Positions 1-50,298 of a DNA stretch of 50,298 nt are shown in pieces. The stretch is from Escherichia phage JMPW2. Position numbers and translations under genes: made by a program. Below the pieces are notes generated by a model. It was not told the DNA's origin, made no database searches, and worked only from the letters and a program-made list of their open reading frames with translations. The stretch lies in the sequence record NC_041873.1. One strand, 5' to 3'. The stretch's first letter is position 1. Each line of letters begins with the position of its first letter.

Positions 1-102
1 ATTGCATGGTGTGCAACAGTTGGTTGATTTGTTGCTGAGATTGCAATGATTGTGAGAGGGGGATCTAGTGTTGCCCGGTTCGCCTGGTAGTCATCTCCAT
101 TT

Positions 103-119
103 TTAGCAAAAAGTGCTAT
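103..119 (-). promoter_or_regulatory. palindromic box TAGCA-N5-TGCTA
   Basis: ttagcaaaaagtgctat (reverse orientation). Confidence 0.5.
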
Positions 120-143
120 CGATTACGATTACGATTGATTGCG
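120..143. repeat. tandem CGATTA hexamer repeats
   Basis: cgattacgattacgattgattgcg. Confidence 0.8.
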
Positions 144-179
144 TGTTAATCATTGTATATGATTTGCCTAAATCGCAAT

Positions 180-300
180 CGTATACAAAATTACGCCAAA
201 TTACGCCTTATAATATACATATAGATATATGTATATATATAATATATAAGTGTTTTTTTATTTATATATATAGATACTATTATTTGTAATATGGTTGTAT
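180..300. repeat. extremely AT-rich tract with TA-alternating palindrome
   Basis: tacatatagatatatgta inverted repeat and (TA)n runs. Confidence 0.8.
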
Positions 301-395
301 AGCGTGTCTTTTATGTTAATCGTTGGATGCTCTGATTATGATTCTCATGTTTATATATACAGTAGTTTTATCGGCGCACATTTATTTAGGGAAAT

Positions 396-422
396 CGATT
401 AACACGATTAACACGATTAACC
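396..422. repeat. three tandem 9-mers CGATTAACA
   Basis: cgattaacacgattaacacgattaacc. Confidence 0.9.
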
Positions 423-536
423 ACACTTAAAATCGCCCCGCAGACCTTGACACATGCGGGTCGTCGTGTAACACTACGATTAGAGACACGGTGTTACATG
501 TTAATCATGGTGTATATTGAAACTAAGGAGAAAGCT

Positions 537-1112
537 ATGAGTTCTTACCAGTCAGACGCAGTACAGGCAGCAATCAAGGCAGCTTACGAGAAGGCCGGAG
601 TAACGGTTGAGCAGCGACCGGAGGCAAAAGTGACCGATGTTATCCGGGCCGCCTGCGATCAGCTTTATGGTGATGGCGAGAATACCGAGTTCACATTCGA
701 CGCGAATAAGATGGCTGAGGCCGCAGCAAGAAAGTCGATGCCAGACGCTGACGAACATGATGTTGCCAAAGGCGCCGAGTCCTGGTTGCTCGGGAAGACG
801 GATGAGATTAACGAGAAGTTTAAATCCTCATTCATCACCCCGATCGTTTCTCGACACTTCTCCAAGATCGGCAAGTCGGTCAAGGTGAGCGTGACCATGA
901 ACGATGAAAAGTTGCGAGTCGTTACTATCTCAGTGAGTGACGAAGAAGTTCCGGTGAAGAAGCGCCGCAGCCGGAAAAAAGTCAGCCTGGCTGATTGTCT
1001 GGATTCGTTTGTTCCTGATGTTGATGATCTTGAGAAAGGCGACGTTACTGTAAGCACCGTGCGCGACCTGGTTCGCCAGATGAAAGCGCATATCGAAAAG
1101 TGTGGACTGTAA
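537..1112 (+). CDS. hypothetical early protein (basic KKRRSRKK patch)
   Basis: Track ORF 447..1112; internal ATG 537 has SD aaggag 7 nt upstream; no recognised domain. Confidence 0.5.
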   Translation: MSSYQSDAVQAAIKAAYEKAGVTVEQRPEAKVTDVIRAACDQLYGDGENTEFTFDANKMAEAAARKSMPDADEHDVAKGAESWLLGKTDEINEKFKSSFITPIVSRHFSKIGKSVKVSVTMNDEKLRVVTISVSDEEVPVKKRRSRKKVSLADCLDSFVPDVDDLEKGDVTVSTVRDLVRQMKAHIEKCGL

Positions 1113-1124
1113 GGAGAAGTAATT

Positions 1125-1451
1125 ATGTTTAATATCAAACCATTAACAGAAGCAGAGAAACAGGCTCAGGCCAAGCAAACCGAAAACATCCAAGTGATCG
1201 CTGATGCGCTGATTGGTAAGAGGTCAATCAAAATAAACCTCGACACTGTTGGTCAGTCATTTTTTACTAAAGGTTTGGATAAGTACGTTATAAATGTGAA
1301 GGCGATAGACCTGGTGGCGAGAATTCAAAAGCTAAACAATCAAAAGCTAAAGCTCATCAAGGTCGAAGGCAACATGTGCGAAATTGAGAACCTCAGCGCA
1401 CCAGACCCGAATAAGTGGGAAATCACCGATGTCGAGTTTATCGTAGAATAG
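1125..1451 (+). CDS. hypothetical protein
   Basis: Track ORF; SD aaggag upstream; stop TAG sits inside the palindromic box. Confidence 0.55.
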   Translation: MFNIKPLTEAEKQAQAKQTENIQVIADALIGKRSIKINLDTVGQSFFTKGLDKYVINVKAIDLVARIQKLNNQKLKLIKVEGNMCEIENLSAPDPNKWEITDVEFIVE

Positions 1452-1497
1452 CACTTTTTGTTAAAACCGGATCGGGGTATCTTGCTATAGTTACCCC
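1447..1497 (+). promoter_or_regulatory. palindromic box plus stem-loop with extended -10-like loop
   Basis: aatagcactttttgttaaaac; hairpin ggggta...tacccc with loop TGcTATAGT. Confidence 0.6.
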
Positions 1498-1529
1498 ATC
1501 AAAACGAGATACCAATCAGAGGAATCACC

Positions 1530-1760
1530 ATGTCAATCGTCAAGAACCAGCAAGCCATCGATTAAACCAATAACAACCGCTTTGCTATTTTCATCACATC
1601 GATAGGTCGCCGATTTGCAGTCAAAGCCGTTCCGGGTGGATACAAAACCTACATGGAAGATAAAGGAAAGTGGGTGTGGTGCGAAAACCTTGCAAACTTC
1701 CTAGTCTGGAATGCAGACCTCCAGGGCTTTGATGATATCAGCACCTTAATTGAGGAATAA
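1530..1760 (+). pseudogene. hypothetical gene with in-frame TAA at 1563..1565 (codon 12)
   Basis: ATG 1530 has the conserved leader CCAATCAGAGGAAT and the box/stem-loop module upstream; the frame is open for 64 more codons after the TAA to stop 1758..1760, ending 6 nt before the next gene. Confidence 0.4.
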
Positions 1761-1766
1761 ATAATT

Positions 1767-1994
1767 ATGCCACGTTACAATAAACAGACTAAACTCACCC
1801 GCGTAAACGGGCACATGATTCCGGCTGAATCCACTCACTACGCAATGGGCGCAAAGCACGGAGTCTATTTCAAGTGGCGCGGTCAATGGAACTTCACGGC
1901 GGTTAGTAATTTCTACATGCGCGTCCCAGGTATTGACCCGCAGACGGTCGTAGAGGACTCAATCGGCAACAACAAGATCGAGGTGCTAAAATGA
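1767..1994 (+). CDS. hypothetical protein
   Basis: Track ORF; SD gagga upstream. Confidence 0.55.
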   Translation: MPRYNKQTKLTRVNGHMIPAESTHYAMGAKHGVYFKWRGQWNFTAVSNFYMRVPGIDPQTVVEDSIGNNKIEVLK

Positions 1995-2101
1995 ACTTCA
2001 ATACAATTGCTTTATGGTCTGCCGTCTGGTTCTTCTGTATGGGTCATGTCATGGTTGGAATCGTAGTTATGCTGCTACTGTGTGCGGGAGCGTTCGAATG
2101 A
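1991..2101 (+). CDS. small hydrophobic membrane peptide (36 aa)
   Basis: Hand-translated MNFNTIALWSAVWFFCMGHVMVGIVVMLLLCAGAFE; ATGA overlap with upstream stop; below track size cutoff. Confidence 0.3.
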   Translation: MNFNTIALWSAVWFFCMGHVMVGIVVMLLLCAGAFE

Positions 2102-2271
2102 TGCGCATTCTGATTTGCATGATGGCGGCGGTCGCACTGGCTATCCTGGTAGTGTCCGGCTGCGGAGAGGCCAAAGAGCGATGCCATGAAACCGGAAACC
2201 AGGTGACTACTTTCGTGATGGTTGGCAACGTATTGCTACCAATCACATCAAATGAAATCACTTGCGAATAG
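2098..2271 (+). CDS. small putative lipoprotein
   Basis: Internal start MMRILICMMAAVALAILVVSGC gives signal peptide with lipobox-like VSGC; within track ORF 2014..2271. Confidence 0.4.
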   Translation: MMRILICMMAAVALAILVVSGCGEAKERCHETGNQVTTFVMVGNVLLPITSNEITCE

Positions 2272-2280
2272 GATGTTAAA

Positions 2281-2472
2281 ATGGCTGATTTTATGCACCA
2301 AATGATTGCAGTATTCAAAGGTAGTGATGACCAGGAGGTGAAAGAGTGCTTTACTGTAGACAAGCCTTATAGCGCATCGCTAACCAGCTTCGGGAATATC
2401 TCATTGCTTGATGATAACGGCGACCCCTGGGTATTCGACGAAGACACTGATTGCTTCGAAATTAAAGAATAG
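2281..2472 (+). CDS. hypothetical acidic protein
   Basis: Track ORF; stop TAG embedded in palindromic box. Confidence 0.5.
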   Translation: MADFMHQMIAVFKGSDDQEVKECFTVDKPYSASLTSFGNISLLDDNGDPWVFDEDTDCFEIKE

Positions 2473-2518
2473 CACTTTTTGTTAAAACTCAATATCGGGG
2501 TTGCGCTATAGTAACCCC
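2468..2518 (+). promoter_or_regulatory. palindromic box plus stem-loop
   Basis: aatagcactttttgttaaaac; hairpin ggggtt...aacccc with TATAGT. Confidence 0.6.
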
Positions 2519-2543
2519 ATCGACAACAAACGAGGACACTAAC

Positions 2544-3032
2544 ATGAAAATCAAATTGCTTTGCACTGGCGGTTACAAGGGCTTTACTCGCGACCTGGAA
2601 GCGGATCCTATCGTGATTGATGCGGTGAAGTGTGATGATAGCCTCGGCGGCTACCGCGTGAAGGTTGACGACCTGGTGAAAGCTGGCGTGTACGATCTGG
2701 GCTATGGACTTTCGGTTAGCCCGGTAGTTGGTCCGGCAGACTTCAACGAGAAGGATGGAACGATGTTCTTCTTCGAATGGGAAGTCCAGGCAAATCCTAA
2801 GCCGCGCAAGGTTCGTCTTCTCAGTAATGGCGGCTACCCGATGCGTCCAGGTTATGAGAATCGCACATTCCCGGTTATCGTTGACTTTGAAGAAATCACC
2901 GCACACTTAGCTTATATCAACGGTGAACAGCTTCATGCTGTTGGATTCGTGGGATGTATGAATCAAGAGGCGCTATGCTTCTTCCATTGTAAAGCCGAGC
3001 CGTTCGATATTGAGTGCGAGTTAGTATACTAA
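2544..3032 (+). CDS. hypothetical protein
   Basis: Track ORF; module and SD acgagga upstream. Confidence 0.6.
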   Translation: MKIKLLCTGGYKGFTRDLEADPIVIDAVKCDDSLGGYRVKVDDLVKAGVYDLGYGLSVSPVVGPADFNEKDGTMFFFEWEVQANPKPRKVRLLSNGGYPMRPGYENRTFPVIVDFEEITAHLAYINGEQLHAVGFVGCMNQEALCFFHCKAEPFDIECELVY

Positions 3033-3077
3033 GCACGAATTGTTAAAAGGGGATTTGGCCTGACTGGTATAATCCCC
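3030..3077 (+). promoter_or_regulatory. palindromic box plus stem-loop
   Basis: taagcacgaattgttaaaag; hairpin ggggatt...aatcccc with TGgTATAAT. Confidence 0.6.
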
Positions 3078-3103
3078 GCATAAACCACTAAGAGGAAAGC
3101 ATC

Positions 3104-3610
3104 ATGTTAAAATTAGAAGACGTAAAATTCCCGATTAAATTTATCAGCCTAGGTTGCGGTGAAATTACATTCACCAGTGAAGATAAAGGCAAGTGGGACA
3201 ATGATAAAATGTCTCAGCTTAAGTTGGATTGGTTTATCAATCGGCACAATGAAGTAAATCCTGAAAACTCAGCCAAGAAGGATTACCATTACATTATTAG
3301 TGGTAGTCAGGATGCGTACGAAAAGTATGATGGTTGGAAAACTGTTCGATCAATCTTCCACCCCGCAAAGCCAGAAATTAAACCGATGTTACAATGCGCT
3401 CAGATCGAGAACATTCCATTGAGCGCGACGCTAAGAGGAGTGCAGCTTGATGATAAATCCTGGCTTGAAATAACCGCCACGCCGAAAACTATTGAAGTGC
3501 ACGACGATATCGTCACTCTTCTATTGCATTACGGCAGCTTTAAGCACAAAGCGGTATCAGGTGAAATCAGCATTAAGCGCGGAACTCTTGTACGCTACGA
3601 GGTGAAATAA
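3104..3610 (+). CDS. hypothetical protein
   Basis: Track ORF; SD aagagga upstream. Confidence 0.6.
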   Translation: MLKLEDVKFPIKFISLGCGEITFTSEDKGKWDNDKMSQLKLDWFINRHNEVNPENSAKKDYHYIISGSQDAYEKYDGWKTVRSIFHPAKPEIKPMLQCAQIENIPLSATLRGVQLDDKSWLEITATPKTIEVHDDIVTLLLHYGSFKHKAVSGEISIKRGTLVRYEVK

Positions 3611-3759
3611 TGGCTGCATGGGTCTTGATTATCTTGATGAGCACCGGGCCGGATCACGTATACATGGAAAGTCGGCAATCATGCAACGAGGCCAGGGCTG
3701 TAATCGCAGAGAATAAGCCGTTCGGATATGAAGTAAAAACGATGTGCGTTAAACGATAG
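3610..3759 (+). CDS. small membrane protein (49 aa)
   Basis: Hand-translated MAAWVLIILMSTGPDHVYMESRQSCNEARAVIAENKPFGYEVKTMCVKR; TAATG overlap with upstream gene; stop TAG inside box. Confidence 0.4.
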   Translation: MAAWVLIILMSTGPDHVYMESRQSCNEARAVIAENKPFGYEVKTMCVKR

Positions 3760-3817
3760 CATGAATTGCTAAACCTTCCGCGAGGCCATTTGTTATAGTG
3801 GCCTTATTGAAGCGCGG
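3756..3817 (+). promoter_or_regulatory. palindromic box plus stem-loop
   Basis: atagcatgaattgctaaacc; hairpin aggcca...ggcct with TGtTATAGT. Confidence 0.6.
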
Positions 3818-3839
3818 CAACCAATCAGAGGAATCAGCT

Positions 3840-4048
3840 ATGGCTACACGACTCACTCAGTAGCAGATTTACGACAAGGCCTCACGCCTTCGTGAATCAC
3901 TTCGAGGTCTGACACCAAACGACCGCATTGAGATTATCGGGCACGCATTGCACGAACTCGCGTCTCAAGACGTAATCTATCATTCATGCGGAAATAAATT
4001 CTGGAACGTGACATTCGAGGTAAAGAAAGATGAGCAAAACTCATAAGT
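3840..4048 (+). pseudogene. hypothetical gene with in-frame TAG at 3861..3863 (codon 8)
   Basis: ATG 3840 preceded by box, stem-loop and CCAATCAGAGGAAT leader; after the TAG the frame stays open 61 codons with no ATG, ending 18 nt into the next gene. Confidence 0.4.
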
Positions 4049-9354: not shown

Positions 9355-9879
9355 ATGAGTGAACCTAAGAACGCTCCCGTAGTCCAGGGAGGTAATTTCA
9401 AAGAGCTATACAAGAAAAAGTTTGGCACTGTACTCGCGAAAAACCGGGCGATGACGCCAGAGCAACTATTCGATCTGTCAGTGAAGTATTTCGAATGGGC
9501 CGAGGACAACGCAATCAAGGCGTCAGAATCAGCCAGCTTTCAGGGTGGCGTTTATGAATCGCTTGTCCATAAGCCGCGCGTCTTCACCTGGACCGGATAC
9601 CGACTATTCATAGGAGCAAGCGAGGCCGCAATCATTAAGTGGAAGCGAGAGGAAGAATACAGTGAGGTTATGGAGTTCGTGGAATCCGTAATCAACGAGC
9701 AAAAATTTCAGCTTGCCGCCAACGGTGTTATTAATGCCTCCTTTATCGGTAAGGATCTCGGAATCGATAAGCCAGCATCAATCAATATCGAAAACTCGTC
9801 AGCTTCCGCATCGACAGTAGTTGCCACTACTGAGGATGCAATGAAAGAGGCAGTAAACAGCATTCTTGATATGCTTTAA
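9355..9879 (+). CDS. terminase small subunit (by position)
   Basis: Immediately upstream of large terminase; ATG 9355 with SD aagagga; track start 9331 lies inside the box. Confidence 0.5.
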   Translation: MSEPKNAPVVQGGNFKELYKKKFGTVLAKNRAMTPEQLFDLSVKYFEWAEDNAIKASESASFQGGVYESLVHKPRVFTWTGYRLFIGASEAAIIKWKREEEYSEVMEFVESVINEQKFQLAANGVINASFIGKDLGIDKPASINIENSSASASTVVATTEDAMKEAVNSILDML

Positions 9880-15241: not shown

Positions 15242-16009
15242 ATGGCTTACGAAAATTTGTTCTTGCGCCCCGCGTGTCCGGGAAATATTTCTGATACTTC
15301 AACCTACAATATTGATGGAGCTTGTGTGGCTCAAGGTGACATTGGGTTCGGCTCAGCGGTTCAGGTTGTAGGCATCGTTGACGGTGTAAAAGTTGTGGCG
15401 GCGCTTCCTGATGGTGGAACTCCTTACGGTATCGCTTTCCGTTCCCAATATGAACACCTGAGCGGTAAAATCCTTGACGGTGAAGTGTGCAACGTCGTTT
15501 CTCACGGTCGCGTATGGACTCTTACTTCTCTTGGTGAGGCTCCCAGCTTGTTCTCAAAGTTACAGTTTGGGTCTGGTGGAGTTGTTACTGGTGGATCTGG
15601 TTCCGCAGGTTGGACATTTGCGGGTGGCTTTGTTAAGCATGAAGATGGCTACATCATTGAGGTTCAGGTGAAACAAAATGCTTTCATCGCTCCACCGCCA
15701 CCGCCCCCTGTCGTTCTTGTTGAATCTGCTACAATCGCCACTGACAAGGAAAGCCCTCAACCAAACAATGTTACGATCCAGTGTGTAGCTAATGCTCTTC
15801 CGGATAATGCAACCGATAAGACTGGTAAATGGTCAATCGACGCTACCAATATCGCCACTGTCGATCCGGACTCAGGTCTTGTAACTCCTGTTGGTGGAGA
15901 GGTAGTCGGTGATTTCAATATTACCTGGACGGCTAACGATGCCAGCAAGACGACGGCAACTATTGCTTATCGCGTAGAAGCAGTGCCAACGCCAGAGGTT
16001 GATGCATAA
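15242..16009 (+). CDS. capsid accessory/decoration-like protein (paralog B) with polyproline linker and Ig-like C-terminus
   Basis: Paralog of 14703; PPPPPPP linker then beta-rich domain. Confidence 0.5.
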   Translation: MAYENLFLRPACPGNISDTSTYNIDGACVAQGDIGFGSAVQVVGIVDGVKVVAALPDGGTPYGIAFRSQYEHLSGKILDGEVCNVVSHGRVWTLTSLGEAPSLFSKLQFGSGGVVTGGSGSAGWTFAGGFVKHEDGYIIEVQVKQNAFIAPPPPPPVVLVESATIATDKESPQPNNVTIQCVANALPDNATDKTGKWSIDATNIATVDPDSGLVTPVGGEVVGDFNITWTANDASKTTATIAYRVEAVPTPEVDA

Positions 16010-16029
16010 CATAAAAACACTTTGACGCT

Positions 16030-16046
16030 TTAACAAAAAGTGCTAT
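16030..16046 (-). promoter_or_regulatory. palindromic box upstream of major capsid gene
   Basis: ttaacaaaaagtgctat followed by hairpin with CATAAT loop. Confidence 0.5.
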
Positions 16047-16053
16047 TATTGAA

Positions 16054-16080
16054 GCCGTGAACATAATCACGGCTTTTTTA
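16054..16080 (+). terminator. rho-independent terminator / stem-loop
   Basis: gccgtga...tcacggc stem plus T6; loop contains CATAAT. Confidence 0.6.
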
Positions 16081-16100
16081 TTAACTACGGAGAAGTAATA

Positions 16101-17060
16101 ATGACTACTAAAAAATTTGATGAAGCAGATAAAAGCAATGTTGAAATGTATCTGATCCAGGCTGGCGTAAAACAGGATGCAGCCGCAACGATGGGTATCT
16201 GGACCGCTCAGGAACTACACCGCATCAAGAGTCAGTCCTATGAAGAAGACTACCCGGTCGGCTCCGCTCTACGAGTATTCCCGGTTACAACCGAACTCTC
16301 TCCGACCGACAAGACGTTTGAGTACATGACCTTTGATAAGGTTGGTACTGCTCAGATTATCGCTGACTATACCGATGACCTGCCTCTGGTTGATGCACTT
16401 GGTACTTCTGAATTTGGTAAGGTGTTCCGTTTGGGTAACGCGTATCTGATCTCAATCGACGAAATCAAAGCAGGTCAGGCAACTGGTCGCCCACTGTCAA
16501 CCCGTAAGGCGAGCGCGTGCCAGTTGGCGCATGATCAGCTTGTTAACCGCCTGGTGTTCAAAGGTTCCGCACCGCACAAGATTGTGTCCGTGTTTAACCA
16601 TCCGAACATCACTAAAATTACCTCCGGTAAGTGGATTGATGCATCTACTATGAAGCCGGAAACTGCGGAAGCTGAGCTAACTCAAGCGATCGAAACCATC
16701 GAGACGATTACTCGGGGTCAGCACCGCGCAACCAACATCCTGATCCCGCCTTCCATGCGTAAGGTTTTGGCGATTCGTATGCCTGAGACAACCATGTCTT
16801 ATCTGGACTATTTTAAGTCTCAGAACTCCGGTATCGAAATCGACTCTATCGCAGAGCTTGAGGATATTGACGGCGCAGGCACCAAAGGCGTACTGGTGTA
16901 CGAAAAGAATCCGATGAACATGTCCATCGAGATCCCGGAAGCATTTAATATGCTGCCAGCACAACCGAAAGACTTGCACTTTAAAGTGCCTTGCACTTCT
17001 AAGTGTACTGGTCTTACAATTTATCGCCCGATGACTATTGTCTTAATCACTGGCGTGTAA
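16101..17060 (+). CDS. major capsid protein
   Basis: 319 aa after scaffold-like gene; strong SD; flanked by terminators as expected for a highly expressed gene. Confidence 0.7.
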   Translation: MTTKKFDEADKSNVEMYLIQAGVKQDAAATMGIWTAQELHRIKSQSYEEDYPVGSALRVFPVTTELSPTDKTFEYMTFDKVGTAQIIADYTDDLPLVDALGTSEFGKVFRLGNAYLISIDEIKAGQATGRPLSTRKASACQLAHDQLVNRLVFKGSAPHKIVSVFNHPNITKITSGKWIDASTMKPETAEAELTQAIETIETITRGQHRATNILIPPSMRKVLAIRMPETTMSYLDYFKSQNSGIEIDSIAELEDIDGAGTKGVLVYEKNPMNMSIEIPEAFNMLPAQPKDLHFKVPCTSKCTGLTIYRPMTIVLITGV

Positions 17061-30707: not shown

Positions 30708-30780
30708 TTGCATGTCCTCGTCGTTAGTGTGATTGCATTGTATGTCGCATTTACTTTTATTGCAATAGCGCAATTACAAT

Positions 30781-31190
30781 TTTTTTTCGTGTAACGGGTG
30801 TCTATTTTTGTAACTGGAGATGGTGTTACAAAATCTACCCAATCCGAACGCAGGTAGATATGATAAAAACTCTATATAATATATATAGATAGATAATATT
30901 TAATTTTAGCTTTATATATATAATTATTGTTGTGTAACAGTTGTCTATCGTGTAACTGGTGATTTGATTGATTCGTCAAATTTCTATCATATATGTTCAA
31001 AATTTAATCAATATGGATTCTACTTGTAGCTATCCCTGTATTTCTAAGAAAAAGCGGTTACAAGTATTACACAGTAGACATCACATAAAAATAGACTTAA
31101 GCCATTGATTCCGTTAATGCTGGTTGTAACTTGAGCGATATAGACACGCTATTACACACCAATTACATGTATCCGATTGACTAAACGCTG
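30781..31190. repeat. AT-rich iteron-like cluster (GTGTAAC / TGTCTAT / GTAACTGG motifs)
   Basis: cGTGTAACgggTGTCTATttttGTAACTGG at ~30790 and GTGTAACagtTGTCTATcGTGTAACTGG at ~30935, with inverted copies near 31050 and 31130 and (TA)n tracts. Confidence 0.6.
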
Positions 31191-31235
31191 TTAATGGCTA
31201 TAATGGATTCATCGTAAACGAGGGAGATAAACGCA

Positions 31236-32350
31236 ATGTTCCAGGTGTTCACATCAAGTCAGCTTTCTAATGACGAGTATCATAGCAACGAAGGTTGGGC
31301 GGCAGAGTATGTAAGCGGTTCTAGCCTTGCAGAAATTTATCAGACTTGCCCGGCTAACTGGAGATTCAAGAAGAATGAGACAACGAAGGCGCTGGAGTTT
31401 GGTACTCAGTCGCATACCAACTTTGAGAGCCGAGATCTGTTTACTGCAACGTATGCACGTTGTCCGGCTCCGTCAGAGTTCAAGGATCTGATTACGTCAC
31501 AAGCCGCACTGGCTGCAAAATTAAAATCTTTCGGCCTGAAAGGTACATCCGGTAAGCAGTACCCGGACCTCATCAAGATGATGGTTGATTGCGGTGAAGA
31601 GCTAAACGTCCAATATCTGATCGAGTTGATTGCGGAAGCAGAGGCGCGCTCTGAAGGAAAGAAATTGGTTGACGCTGACAAATACGACGCTTGCATGAAG
31701 ATGAGAGCAATCCTTGAACAAAATCCTGATCACGAAGCGTGCATCAACAGTGAAACGGCGCAGCGTGAGATTTCAATCTTCGGTGAGATATCCGGCGTCA
31801 AGGTTAAGGTTCGACTTGACCATCTGGACTACAAAGAGAATGTTCCAGGTCGTGTCCTGACTGGTTATGATGAGAATGGAGATCCGGTATTCGAAGATGT
31901 TATTTTCCCTGAAGCACTGATGAGAATGGAGATCCGGTATTCGAAGATGTTATTTTCCCTGAAGCACTGATTATCACTGACTTCAAAACAACAATGAGCG
32001 CCAACCCGTTAGAGTTCCCGAGACTGGCATACAATCACGGGTATTATCTGAAAATGGCCTTGCAGCATGATCTGCTACGACGCGCAATCCAGGCTGGCGC
32101 TTTTGAAGGCAACTTCCCGGAATATATCCCGATCGTAGTTCGATTGCTGGCTCAGGAGAAAAAAGAGCCTTACATCGCACTTGCTTACCGTATGACTATG
32201 GAGCAAATCAGGATCGGTCGTAGCCAGTATGTTAGCGTAGTCCACACTTACAAGGCTTGCTCTGAAATGGATGTTTGGCCTGGGTACGCTGGCGACGCAA
32301 GCGAGATTGAACTTGAAACGCCATCATGGGTGCGTTACCAAAATAAGTAA
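31236..32350 (+). pseudogene. PD-(D/E)XK recombination exonuclease, frameshifted by 50-bp tandem duplication
   Basis: 31871..31920 and 31921..31970 are identical; removing one copy fuses ORFs 31236..31970 and 31994..32350 in frame and restores ...FPEALIITDFKTT... Confidence 0.6.
31871..31970 (+). repeat. perfect 50-bp direct tandem duplication (2 copies)
   Basis: tgagaatggagatccggtattcgaagatgttattttccctgaagcactga repeated exactly. Confidence 0.95.
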
Positions 32351-33560: not shown

Positions 33561-35116
33561 CATTTGGACTTCAACATTTTTATCTCTTCTTGTAACTCTT
33601 CAACTTTCTTTATTGTATCCTGTAAAGCTCTCATAGTGTCAAGCAATAAAGGAGTTGTATCAAGCTCAAGCCTTTCAACTTTTGGCCCGTTTAGCTCGTG
33701 GCTCTCATACACCCTTCTCTTAACATATAGATTGTCGATCTCTTCTATCTCCTGAGCTATAACACCTCTCCTTACCCTTTCTTGCTCATCATCGTTAAAT
33801 ATAAAGTTCCTAAATCTCATTGATTTTATGTTGTTGTATGCAATGCTTGATTCATCATCCTTTATGCCGTGCTTTATATTTCTGTCAGATGCCGGAACCT
33901 GTTGGAAACTTCCAGCCCCTTGCGGTCCAGCGTAAGATATTTGCCCTGAAGCCATAAACCTGAAATGCATTTGCAGACCAATATTGCCTGCTCCATCCCT
34001 ATCTTGAGTGCCTACTGATATTTGTGCCCTGGGCCATTCAGGATTACCCGTAGTCATCATGCCAAATGCTACGCCGCCAACGTATCCCTGACCTCTGGTG
34101 TCACACGATCCAGCAATAAGTGATTGATAGTTTTCAGCACCACTATCAGCGGTGTAAGCATTACCCTGGAAGCATGAAGCAGACCACATCTGGTTGTAAC
34201 CCATAGATGTTTTCTGGCATAAAAACTGATTAGCTCTGAATCTATTGTTAGTCTCGAAGTAGTTTGCCCCCTCATAAAATAATAAAGCCCCAGCATAACC
34301 ATTATCGCTACGTTCTTTTCTGACGTAAATACCTGGCGTAGATATTCCATCAGGTGACATAATCATCAATGATGACAATATGGACTGACTACCCCAGCTA
34401 GAACCGTCCCATGAATTCCTTCCTGCACCTATAGCGCCAGTGGTGTTAATAGTAAGAAAGTTAACAGCATCATTTTCACCTAACCCAATATTTTTTCTTG
34501 ACTCTTTTTTATCCTCAAGACCAGCTAGATTGCCATCCTTAGTTAAAAGATTTTCAGCGTCAACGCTATTTGCTGCGTCCTTTGCTTCCTGCGCACTGAC
34601 TGCTGCTGCATCTTTTGCGCTAACCGCTGCATCGCGTGCAGCGTTGGCTGCGTCACGCGCTAATTCAGCCTGATTTTGCGCAGCTTGAGAATCAGATTTC
34701 GCCTGATTCACATCAGCAACTATTTGCTCAAGTTTATTCATATCAGCAACTATTTGCTCAAGTTTATTCATATCAAGCTGATTTATCAGGTCTATAGCTG
34801 CCGCAATCTCAGTCTCTTTGCTTTGATAGTATCGAAGAGTCTCGGCGACGTTTTGAGCTAATCCGTTAACGGTTAGAGAGTCATTAAGTAGGATCACATA
34901 CTTACCGTCATCGGCAGTCTGACCATCAGTAGAGATAGCCTTTAATTCTGTATCACTAACGATATCGCTAATCACAGCTAGCTTAATTGGTTGCTCAAGG
35001 AACACGATAGTTGCACCTACGCGAATAAGAGCAAGCTGGTCTTTCCATTTTGTATCGGTTCCGTGAACCGTTCCGTCTGCATCCATTGATGCAGTACCGC
35101 GTCGATATAAAGCCAT
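33560..35116 (-). CDS. tail fibre protein with C-terminal intramolecular chaperone-like domain
   Basis: Fibre-like N-terminus MALYRRGTASMDADGTVHGTDTKW; Ala/Gln coiled region; C-terminal coiled-coil ...LQDTIKKVEELQEEIKMLKSK. Confidence 0.7.
   Translation of the reverse strand: MALYRRGTASMDADGTVHGTDTKWKDQLALIRVGATIVFLEQPIKLAVISDIVSDTELKAISTDGQTADDGKYVILLNDSLTVNGLAQNVAETLRYYQSKETEIAAAIDLINQLDMNKLEQIVADMNKLEQIVADVNQAKSDSQAAQNQAELARDAANAARDAAVSAKDAAAVSAQEAKDAANSVDAENLLTKDGNLAGLEDKKESRKNIGLGENDAVNFLTINTTGAIGAGRNSWDGSSWGSQSILSSLMIMSPDGISTPGIYVRKERSDNGYAGALLFYEGANYFETNNRFRANQFLCQKTSMGYNQMWSASCFQGNAYTADSGAENYQSLIAGSCDTRGQGYVGGVAFGMMTTGNPEWPRAQISVGTQDRDGAGNIGLQMHFRFMASGQISYAGPQGAGSFQQVPASDRNIKHGIKDDESSIAYNNIKSMRFRNFIFNDDEQERVRRGVIAQEIEEIDNLYVKRRVYESHELNGPKVERLELDTTPLLLDTMRALQDTIKKVEELQEEIKMLKSK
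34712..34771 (-). repeat. perfect 30-bp in-frame tandem duplication inside tail fibre gene
   Basis: atcagcaactatttgctcaagtttattcat x2, encoding MNKLEQIVAD twice. Confidence 0.95.
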
Positions 35117-36210: not shown

Positions 36211-36230
36211 GTTTTAACTAAAAATGCTAT
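36211..36230 (-). promoter_or_regulatory. palindromic box variant
   Basis: gttttaactaaaaatgctat (reverse orientation). Confidence 0.45.
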
Positions 36231-36666
36231 TGGTCGTCCCGATATCTTCCTTCTTCACGACGCGCATAAATTTCTTGTTCTTGCATCGCTTCTCAAGGCA
36301 CTTGCCGTTACCGTCAAACTTCAGGTCGAATCGCAACCATGCGGCACGAAATCCTTTACACCCCTGTCGTCGGTAAGCACGATGCGCAGCTTCAGCACCT
36401 TGCCACGAAATCATGTTGCGTTCTTTCCAGCCTTGCACCGTCTGATTGCTAACCTTTAGAGCTTTTGCGCAGGCCGCAGGGCCACCATAATATTCGATAA
36501 GCGCATCAAGTCGCGCTCGCAATCCGGCGCGTGTTTCTTCTTTATGAATATAGAAGCCGCAGCGCTGTCGAGGCTTTTTATCTTTACCGCGTCGTGTTCC
36601 GTTGTTACCATTGATGTGACGTTTATCGATTTCACCAGTTGACTCTGCGATACGTTGAATACTCAT
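36214..36666 (-). CDS. HTH DNA-binding protein (putative regulator)
   Basis: XRE-like helix-turn-helix AKALKVSNQTVQGWKERN; basic N-terminus. Confidence 0.5.
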   Translation of the reverse strand: MSIQRIAESTGEIDKRHINGNNGTRRGKDKKPRQRCGFYIHKEETRAGLRARLDALIEYYGGPAACAKALKVSNQTVQGWKERNMISWQGAEAAHRAYRRQGCKGFRAAWLRFDLKFDGNGKCLEKRCKNKKFMRVVKKEDIGTTNSIFS

Positions 36667-49447: not shown

Positions 49448-50134
49448 TTAGATAGCTTTAAAAAATCCCCTGGGTGATAGAGATCGTATCAGCTTCGTTT
49501 TGGCAGACTTGCCGCCCAGCTTGTTTTGCTGTGCAGAGTACCCGTCAGGCAGGCTTACAGGTTTTCTCTCGGGCATGACAAAATCGTCAGAGGTCCACAG
49601 ACAAGTTTTCTTCGGGTAAGCATCGCGCGGCGCAATATACATCGGGAACCAGGGGTGCGCGTCATCCTCAGGAAGATAGCCGCCGTACTCCCAGGGATTG
49701 AAGGAGTGATTTGGTTTTCTCCACGCAGACGACAGGACGCTCACCGGATTCTCAATGATGTAAGTCACACCAAGCTCCTTACCAATGTTCGCAGCTATCC
49801 GAGCGGTGGCAACAGCCTTCTCCTGGAATAACGGATCACGTTCACGCTTACTGGCAAAGTGACGAGCACCACTAACAGCCAGGTCAGTGCATGGAGGGAA
49901 AGCCATAATAAAATCCGGCTTGCCATACACACCCGCGATCGCGTCACGTTCGAACTTCTCATCAATAAAGACGTTCACATACTCAATGTTCGGATGCTCC
50001 ACCCTGGCGTTGTACTTTGCATAATCTCCGTGATCGGCCCCGTCAAAGTTGAAGCACATCACCTTATGACCTTGCTTTGCCAGTTCATGACCAGCAAGAC
50101 CGGAACCGTCGAATAGTGACCAAATTAACTTCAT
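49448..50134 (-). CDS. C5-cytosine DNA methyltransferase (Dcm-like)
   Basis: Motif I LFDGSG, motif IV FPPCTDLAVSG, ENP(V)-type motif YIIENPVS; conserved leader upstream. Confidence 0.7.
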   Translation of the reverse strand: MKLIWSLFDGSGLAGHELAKQGHKVMCFNFDGADHGDYAKYNARVEHPNIEYVNVFIDEKFERDAIAGVYGKPDFIMAFPPCTDLAVSGARHFASKRERDPLFQEKAVATARIAANIGKELGVTYIIENPVSVLSSAWRKPNHSFNPWEYGGYLPEDDAHPWFPMYIAPRDAYPKKTCLWTSDDFVMPERKPVSLPDGYSAQQNKLGGKSAKTKLIRSLSPRGFFKAI

Positions 50135-50152
50135 TGCTGCTTCCTCTTCTGA

Positions 50153-50213
50153 TTGGTTGATGGCCAGAACCATACCCCGACAACCTGATCGAGTCGTTAG
50201 CAAAAAATGCTAT
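50153..50213 (-). promoter_or_regulatory. palindromic box plus leader upstream of dcm-like gene
   Basis: Minus-strand atagcattttttgctaac then CAACCAATCAGAAGAGGAAG and ATG 50134. Confidence 0.5.
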
Positions 50214-50298
50214 TCCAATAATTGCTCATTATTCCATCAATATCGGAATAGGTGGAATAATTCTGATTGCGATTGATTGCAAATGATGAAACGTGATT

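Follow-up and report, generated by a model that had tools for sequence, protein, structure and literature searches.

Where does a T1-like phage begin to package its DNA, and where does it begin to replicate it? T1 is a classic T phage and a notorious laboratory contaminant, and the accessible literature defines neither its replication origin nor the sequence of its packaging site (pac); the SU57 paper found no origin, and the TLS paper reports finding no iterons (PMC11447400). We approached the question in Escherichia phage JMPW2, a T1-like Tunavirus (Drexlerviridae), using the 50,298-nucleotide (nt) record NC_041873.1, the whole of which is referred to below as the window. A first-pass annotation had singled out bases 1-446 as a repeat-dense, AT-rich segment that might join the window end and hold divergent early promoters and pac. 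The explanation that we prefer, tentatively, is that these bases belong to a divergent early control region that also contains pac, and that the lineage-specific repeats within it are bound by the first early protein, either as a replication origin or as an autoregulatory operator.

The JMPW2 record opens at the same base as the T1 reference, and positions 2-600 of the window are 97.8% identical to T1 (NC_005833) positions 2-602. The T1 record annotates its terminal redundancy as repeat_region 1..2800, and by its start-base convention base 1 is a presumed packaging end and not a biological boundary. Two permuted records bear out the proposal that window end and window start are contiguous: in IME18 the homologue of the end (15431-15730) abuts that of the start (15731-17028), and in ADB-2 the two homologues abut as well (2020-3317 and 3318-3913). 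Across the junction, 12 relatives have a single unbroken non-coding region of 640-800 nt. This contiguity, together with the starts of the two flanking genes, defines the true unit as 50135..50298 plus 1..536:

Starting at 50134, minus strand: leftward DNA methyltransferase gene (phrog_757), heading the leftward block.
50135..50298: left 164 nt of the non-coding region, joining base 1 on the circular map.
537..1112, plus strand: first rightward gene (191 amino acids, phrog_11083), with ribosome-binding site AAGGAG at 525-530; candidate reader of the repeats.

The predicted divergent region between the methyltransferase-led and rightward early blocks thus exists, at about 700 nt instead of the ~600 bp first estimated, and bases 1-446 make up about two-thirds of it. 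It contains no credible gene and is the most AT-rich non-coding region of the genome. Annotators should be aware that the conventional base 1 cuts through this functional unit.

We compared the equivalent region in eight further Tunavirus phages, four Webervirus phages (infecting Klebsiella/Enterobacter), 23 viral contigs and TLS. All of these relatives carry 570-800 nt of non-coding DNA between divergent gene blocks, in which the elements follow one order: a leftward family promoter repeat, an inverted array, a same-strand GATT(G/T) array, variable short repeats, a TA-rich core (82-90% AT), a further set of variable short repeats, the motif TTGAC(A/G)-16/17-TAnnAT and the first gene. This layout recurs in Tunavirus, Webervirus and Tlsvirus, and the sequence comparison over these three Drexlerviridae lineages divides the region into a conserved left half (50197..50298 plus 1..126) and a right half (127..536). 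The left half comprises the following features:

50169..50213, minus strand: candidate leftward promoter module, with ATAGCAT-N4-TTGCTAA at 50197-50213 and a -10-like TATGGT at 50169-50174.
50211..50259: inverted array, TATTCC at 50211 and 50230 and GGAATA at 50245 and 50254.
50265..50298, plus strand: GATT(G/A) cluster 1 (50265, 50271, 50275, 50295), candidate left half of pac.
1..52, plus strand: T1 base-1 position and GATT(T/G) cluster 2 (26, 39, 48), candidate for the region of the pac cut and for the right half of the site.
103..119, minus strand: orphan family promoter repeat (ATAGCACTTTTTGCTAA), followed by neither a -10 nor a hairpin.

The best pac candidate is most likely the GATT(G/T) array that straddles the junction (50265..50298 plus 1..52), most of which lies outside the features named in the first-pass annotation. 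GATTG reaches 5 per 120 nt against a genome mean of 0.23; its highest plus-strand peak genome-wide is at ~50232 and the second highest at ~31, and the two flank base 1. Webervirus and TLS have kept the array, and base 1 of the T1 and TLS records falls inside it in both cases. The TLS record begins with AGATTT, embedded in seven or eight same-strand GATT(G/T/A) motifs, with the leftward promoter repeat ~120 nt to the left; its authors assigned AGATTT as pac from restriction mapping of a submolar fragment and from resemblance to the P22 pac (PMC11447400). For SU57, read coverage is reported to change stepwise in the corresponding untranslated region, and the same paper locates the T1 pac there. 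That pac lies in this intergenic region is already known; the papers on Sfin-1, SH6, KanT1 and Sin4 and that of Korf et al. 2019 give no pac coordinate.

Conservation around the array is pronounced. The TATTCC/GGAATA array is invariant in nine Tunavirus and four Webervirus sequences, and an island of ~85 nt (50197-50281), which holds the leftward promoter repeat, this array and the start of the GATT array, recurs at ~80% identity in over 200 records of Klebsiella phages, none of which annotates a function there. These phages and JMPW2 share just ~50% identity in the small terminase, so the ~80% identity retained by the island indicates unusually strong constraint. Conservation together with the small terminase, as expected of a pac sequence, is seen in the GATT(G/T) array and the island and is not seen in the repeats at 120-422. 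From record conventions and coarse mapping, we infer that the terminase targets the array and packages rightward.

The pac sites of phages P1 and SPP1 consist of short repeats flanking the cut region. The two same-strand GATT(G/T) clusters around the annotated genome end resemble these headful systems (P1 hexamers on both sides of the cut; SPP1 pacL/pacC/pacR), with the difference that the cut position in JMPW2 derives from record conventions and restriction mapping only. The T1 small terminase is P22 gp3-like, and the core of the P22 pac contains GATTT (PMC11447400); however, the P22 site (GAAGATTTATCTGAAGTCGTTA) lies inside gene 3, whereas the candidate in JMPW2 is ~9 kb from the small-terminase gene (9355-9879).

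The right half behaves differently among close relatives. In an alignment of nine Tunavirus phages, which fall into two types, blocks 1-126, 209-296, 345-366 and 425-452 are conserved and blocks 127-208, 297-343, 367-425 and 453-536 are variable. Since variable blocks alternate with conserved ones, the left and right repeats must have changed together across an unchanged core. The repeats listed in the first-pass annotation sit within the variable blocks, and each lineage has its own repeat word:

Type A (window, T1, Lg3, ADB-2): GATTAACA, and tandem cgATTAACAcgATTAACAcgATTAACC.
Type B (IME18, SA30RD, EF3-1, Sfin-1, Sso008): CTAGACA, and tandem ctCTAGACAgCTAGACAaatg.
Webervirus: ACCACAA in Sushi-type phages, AAACAC in 1513-type phages, GTTCAC in locus L076.
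TLS: GTGAACA, tandem to the right of the core and inverted to its left.

Repeats were called with Tandem Repeats Finder and by direct reading of the sequence, and the following features of the window lie in the right half of the region or, in the case of 120..143, reach into it:

120..143, plus strand: tandem CGATTA CGATTA CGATTG ATTGCG (Tandem Repeats Finder: CGATTA x2.8 at 120-136).
144..151, minus strand: GATTAACA copy 1, a lineage-specific repeat left of the TA core.
188..207, plus strand: AAATTACGCC x2 (Tandem Repeats Finder).
209..296: TA-rich core, 89% AT, with a TA run at 209-248.
314..321, minus strand: GATTAACA copy 2, aligned with TGTCTAG/TGTCTGG of type B.
345..366: conserved block CATGTTTATATATACAGTA between two variable blocks, identical in 8 of 9 Tunavirus sequences.
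396..422, plus strand: tandem 9-mers CGATTAACA, CGATTAACA and CGATTAACC, holding GATTAAC copies 3-5 (Tandem Repeats Finder: CGATTAACA x2.9 at 396-421, the third unit ending in C).
437..460: hairpin CCCGCA (437-442) / TGCGGG (455-460) with TTGACA in its 12-nt loop, in the window and T1.
447..475, plus strand: candidate rightward early promoter, -35 TTGACA at 447-452, 17-nt spacer, -10 AACACT at 470-475.
466..498: inverted pair GTGTAACAC (466-474) / GTGTTACA (491-498), overlapping the -10 and start region.
478..506: inverted half-sites GATTAGA (478-484, plus) and GATTAACA copy 6 (499-506, minus), with predicted placement relative to the promoter.

All of the sequence features listed at first pass are real, with small corrections: the third of the hexamers at 120..143 reads CGATTG, and the ~90% AT ascribed to the whole of 180..300 proved too high, the measured value being 82%, with 89% reached only over 209-296. 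Positions 180-300 form the most AT-rich 121-nt stretch of the genome, with a single other peak at 30.8-31.1 kb. The TA core is flanked by an imperfect inverted repeat (TATACAA at 182-188, TTGTATA at 294-300), is nearly invariant in the nine Tunavirus sequences and has an equivalent in Webervirus and TLS. The first CGATTAC is kept across Tunavirus, except for one substitution in Lg3, and its expansion is confined to type A. The duplication of AAATTACGCC is likewise type-A specific, ACAAAATTAC and ACGCC being common to type B too.

The GATTAACA word is strongly clustered, five of its six copies in the 50,298 bases (both strands) lying within the 363 nt from 144 to 506. The 700-nt region was shuffled 1000 times with its dinucleotides preserved, a test that corrects for picking the best word: the commonest 8-mer attained 5 copies in one shuffle, and the commonest 7-mer 6 copies in three. 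An iteron origin would be expected to combine a short repeat clustered above chance with an adjoining AT-rich segment; GATTAACA shows such clustering, and 209-296, the AT maximum of the genome, is in composition such a segment. The three tandem 9-mers are identical in all four type-A phages despite differing flanks, which we take as a sign of selection on the repeats themselves.

The repeat words change together with the first rightward gene. Within the region, GATTAACA has 5/6 of its genomic copies in the window and in T1 and 3/6 in ADB-2, and none in IME18 and Sfin-1. CTAGACA has 3/4 of its copies there in IME18 and 4/5 in Sfin-1; it is absent from the window and occurs once each in T1 and ADB-2, outside the region. 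At the position aligned with 396..422, type B has CTAGACAgCTAGACAaatGTTACAC, and it carries TGTCTAG in the variable block of GATTAACA copy 1, a few columns further right. Positions 1-600 are matched by 47 records, 14 of them throughout and most of the other 33, with all of those listed, only over 1-310, at ~85%; among the matches listed, none joins type-A left repeats to a type-B right half. When all open reading frames (ORFs) of the window were compared with four whole genomes (T1, ADB-2, IME18 and Sfin-1), the first-gene protein was 100%, 88%, 52% and 49% identical, respectively. The small terminase (97-99% to all four), the Cro-like helix-turn-helix (HTH) regulator at 36214-36666 (97-99%), the primase (95-97%) and the helicases (97-100%) showed no such drop, and by scan of the ORF table the first gene was the sole real gene found to track the repeat type in these four genomes. 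In Webervirus, three protein clades match three words (1513-type with AAACAC, Sushi-type with ACCACAA and the divergent L076 protein with GTTCAC). The correspondence suggests that the first-gene protein binds the repeats next to it. This coupled swap of word and gene is not described in the literature searched.

Locus L009 (Shigella phage vB_SsoS_008) is a hybrid in the region homologous to 367-536: type-B CTAGACA repeats are followed by the type-A promoter-proximal catgttaatcatggtgtatattgaaactaaggagaaagct, a type-B-like leader and a third first-gene clade (46% identity), an arrangement that looks like a recombination scar inside the cassette. For the 1513-type phages, AATCTTACC was considered as the specific word and rejected in favour of AAACAC, as each of the three Webervirus types inspected has it as an inverted repeat around the core, with ATCTTAC ranking among the top 7-mers in most loci.

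The first-gene protein consists of a variable N-terminal part of ~135 residues and a mosaic C-terminal part of ~50 residues. In both genera the C-terminal ~45-50 residues assort independently of the N-terminal clade, and the tail ending in ...ALAVDFAGDALTGIYKANLFAAIDLGLTASDIS is present on both 1513-type and Sushi-like proteins. Such a mosaic tail suggests a two-domain protein with an exchangeable partner-binding tail. AlphaFold models were of moderate quality (predicted local distance difference test, pLDDT, 75.7 for the Tunavirus and 72.4 for the Webervirus protein), each with a helix-strand-helix-helix-...-strand-strand core. The weak structural matches of the Webervirus model included the winged helices of Stn1, PurR, CtsR and MukF, and there was a weak fold resemblance to RepE, RepA, pi and RctB, with no significant structural homology. 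We treat this predicted winged-helix likeness as a lead and not as evidence of family membership. The search for a paralogue of the first gene within the window found none.

Candidate promoters face outward on both sides of the region. On the right, 8 of the 9 Tunavirus sequences keep TTGACA (447-452) unchanged, with CACAAT 17 nt downstream in type B; the equivalents in Webervirus and TLS are stronger (TTGAC(A/G)-16/17-TATTAT/TAGTAT/TAATAT, 60-100 nt upstream of the first gene), the -10 of the window (AACACT) being weak and under the scan threshold. The site at 447-475 therefore resembles a sigma-70 promoter in having hexamers at the usual 16-18 nt spacing that are conserved in relatives, and the SA30RD annotators placed a promoter 59-87 nt upstream of the first-gene ATG, the expected place, its match to 447-475 not being mapped exactly. 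With a predicted transcription start near 482, the tandem 9-mers at 396..422 would lie at about -87 to -60, and the half-site pair at 478..506 would span the start and the 5' leader (+1 to +25), an arrangement that suits autoregulation. Of the small hairpin that had been drawn around TTGACA at ~430..455, both components are present and TTGACA is the conserved -35; the hairpin itself is shifted or weaker in Lg3 and ADB-2, absent in type B and probably incidental.

On the left, the candidate module lies 63-79 nt upstream of the methyltransferase ATG. Its repeat is one of 18 copies in the genome, which follow the local direction of the genes except near 16.0, 19.8, 35.1 and 36.7 kb and mostly have a -10-like hexamer at a fixed 22 nt downstream. 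The element is the same as the 21-nt direct repeat aaATAGCACnnnTTGnTAAAA already described for TLS, where the associated hairpin is not described (PMC11447400). Two copies, both intergenic and leftward, fall in the region (50197-50213 and 103-119, minus strand). Most JMPW2 copies differ from the TLS description in continuing, 22 nt on, to an extended -10-like TGnTATAGT; copy 103-119 lacks that part and is nearly invariant in the nine Tunavirus sequences (two variable columns). The suggestion of divergent early promoters is consistent with this pairing of a conserved TTGACA site and a leftward T1-family module.

Elsewhere in the genome, family modules occur for example at 1449, 2470, 3757, 5304, 7491, 36680, 47351(-) and 47866(-), in the form ATAGCAC-N3/4-TTG(C/T)TAAAA followed after exactly 22 nt by an often extended -10 (TGnTATAGT). 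This -10 lies within the loop or the 3' arm of an inverted repeat whose arm sequences vary by copy (stems of 8-15 pairs including G-T), and the hairpins had shuffle p <=0.04 at 8 sites.

Taken together, these elements would fit the following scheme. The left half would carry a leftward early promoter, the inverted array and the GATT(G/T) array, the last being the most likely start of headful packaging and read by the unchanged small terminase. The right half would be a replicon-like cassette, in which an easily melted TA core lies between 8-9 nt repeats and next to a first gene with its own sigma-70 promoter. The first early protein may bind the repeats through its variable, possibly winged-helix-like N-terminal domain; at the start site and leader it would thereby silence the promoter of its own gene, and at the tandem and inverted copies that surround the TA core it would serve either to open the core for iteron-type replication or to organise early transcription.

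A second locus of the genome bears on this scheme. The non-coding region at 30710-31236, between the cor-like (-) and recE-like (+) genes, contains a second TA core (30873-30953), which aligns over 88 nt with the core at 226-307 at 77% identity. Arrays of GTGTAAC/GTTACA and of TGTCTA/TAGACA lie to its sides, as do a match to the IHF consensus (31098-31110) and, immediately before the recE-like ATG, a near-consensus promoter (TTGACT and TATAAT with a 17-nt spacer). The region hardly varies among five Tunavirus genomes and is a rival candidate for the origin. GTGTAAC has five copies in each of the five genomes, one at the first-gene promoter and three in the second TA-core region. This distribution, together with the second region, implies at least two readers, one conserved and one type-specific. 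The conserved reader, a reader of the invariant GTGTAAC, is possibly the HTH regulator at 36214-36666 (minus strand, 150 amino acids, between the primase and helicase genes), which is annotated as Cro-like from a below-cutoff match to Pfam P22_Cro and from phrog_2856 ('transcriptional regulator').

Several observations weigh against the explanation that we prefer. An invariant second TA-core region with its own arrays means that the layout is not unique and that 'one protein, one word' is too simple, the more so as the type-B composite TAGACAaatGTTACAC resembles the composite site TAGACA-N3-GTTACAC of the second region. The layout is thus not by itself proof of an origin. DnaA or IHF signals, common though not universal at iteron origins, are also lacking: in 1-536 there are two one-mismatch DnaA boxes, a density not above the genome rate, which is itself not above that of shuffles, and the IHF consensus has no match in the 700-nt region. 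The repeats, 8-9 nt long at 9-nt spacing, are shorter than classical iterons of 17-22 nt. Because the first gene adjoins the right-hand repeats, its co-variation with them may partly be simple linkage. Pfam and PHROG scans assigned its protein no function, DNA-binding or other, the only matches being sub-threshold (DUF7174 and AcrF2); profile comparison detected no homology between the Tunavirus and Webervirus first-gene families, and a tblastn search against plasmids gave no match. Plain sigma-70 consensus and terminator scans of both window ends showed no excess over shuffles. As to pac, the start bases of T1 and TLS derive from restriction mapping combined with a guessed motif, and in a P22-pac pattern search no P22-pac-like 12-mer stands out.

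How far the right half resembles an origin is best judged against known iteron systems (F/RepE, pPS10/RepA, R6K/pi, P1 oriR/RepA, lambda ori/O and P4 ori/alpha, with its 8-bp repeats). As in these, an AT-rich core lies beside tandem direct repeats, further copies are inverted, copies overlap the promoter of the adjacent gene, and relatives that differ in the repeat word differ in the adjacent protein as well. The differences are the spacing (9 nt here against about 22 nt), the missing DnaA boxes and the lack of sequence or significant structural homology to the Rep/O families; moreover, JMPW2 is virulent and encodes its own primase and helicases, and the origin role is a predicted one. We consider it rather doubtful that the T1 origin is an exchangeable replicon cassette of the Drexlerviridae where the early gene blocks meet, composed of a small, hitherto unrecognised winged-helix-like initiator, lineage-specific 8-9 nt repeats read by its variable N-terminal domain, and a conserved TA unwinding core. 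It is possible, if somewhat unlikely, that the right half serves transcription control only, its repeats being operators through which an early autoregulator (the first gene product or another phage factor) switches off the divergent early promoters, with the TA core as promoter, UP-element or curved DNA. The position of copies upstream of and just past the start of the conserved TTGACA promoter speaks for such a role, as do the three copies that fill the leader and overlap the ribosome-binding site in Sushi-type phages, the second TA core with arrays just upstream of the recE-like promoter, the lack of DnaA and IHF sites, and the likeness of 8-9 nt words to transcription-factor half-sites. 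Short-repeat arrays in both orientations also lie between the divergent early promoters of Mu (Pe/Pc, O1-O3) and lambda (OL/OR), where specificity is exchangeable between relatives, as in immunity regions; yet JMPW2, being virulent, has no repressor or lysogeny module, its candidate reader has no recognisable HTH, and a 90-nt TA core is central. Operators alone would leave unexplained the copies 300-400 nt upstream, beyond the conserved 90-nt TA core, and the direct triple repeat beside an unwinding-prone core, which is the pattern of iteron origins.

The remaining alternatives are less compatible with the comparative data. Of the first-pass suggestion that this region holds pac, the location is plausible in the light of the T1 and TLS records and the SU57 paper, and the part that made the listed repeats (CGATTA, AATTACGCC and CGATTAACA) candidates is very unlikely: recognition of short repeats by the terminase would have parallels in P1 and SPP1, but in close relatives unrelated words replace these repeats while the small terminase stays 97-99% identical, the T1 start base is 120-420 nt to their left, and the array conserved across lineages is GATT(G/T). 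We find it highly improbable that the conserved left block acts as an RNA or that the region hides a small protein gene. Automatic annotation does put hypothetical proteins inside the non-coding region in the ULIM2 record and in RCIP0004 (locus L013, 1658-1834), and the orphan promoter repeat at 103-119 points leftward; however, this repeat lacks the -10 seen at 22 nt in other copies, the 58-codon ORF at 113-289 (+) crosses the TA core and its frame is broken in type B by 10-nt and 1-nt indels, and the contiguous region of neither ADB-2 nor Sushi gave a meaningful Rfam match. An AT-rich spacer of low complexity, whose repeats arose by chance and serve no particular function, would account for the plain sigma-70 scan not rising above chance; it is barely credible, given that three lineages share the layout and over 200 records the 85-nt island, and given the shuffles and the co-variation of repeats and protein.

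Under the explanation that we prefer, the question is narrowed to ~700 nt, with the GATT(G/T) array as putative terminase target, a conserved promoter pair and a repeat/first-gene cassette, whose exchange between the natural types would provide ready-made controls. If the cassette is an origin, the family gains a defined replicon and one early gene of unknown role a function; at least six specificity types over the three lineages would then exist and could set the replication compatibility of co-infecting relatives. If it is an operator system, it defines an early autoregulator.

Two further features of the window lie outside the control region. A perfect 50-bp tandem duplication (31868-31967) splits the recE-like exonuclease VIII gene into two ORFs (31236-31970 and 31994-32350); removal of one copy restores an ORF of 354 amino acids, 347/354 identical to that of T1, so that the duplication is either a real frameshift mutation or an assembly error. 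Finally, 30-nt tandem repeats occur in the region of the leftward tail-fibre gene, at 34706-34775 (2.3 copies, 97%) and 33569-33625 (1.9 copies, 79%).

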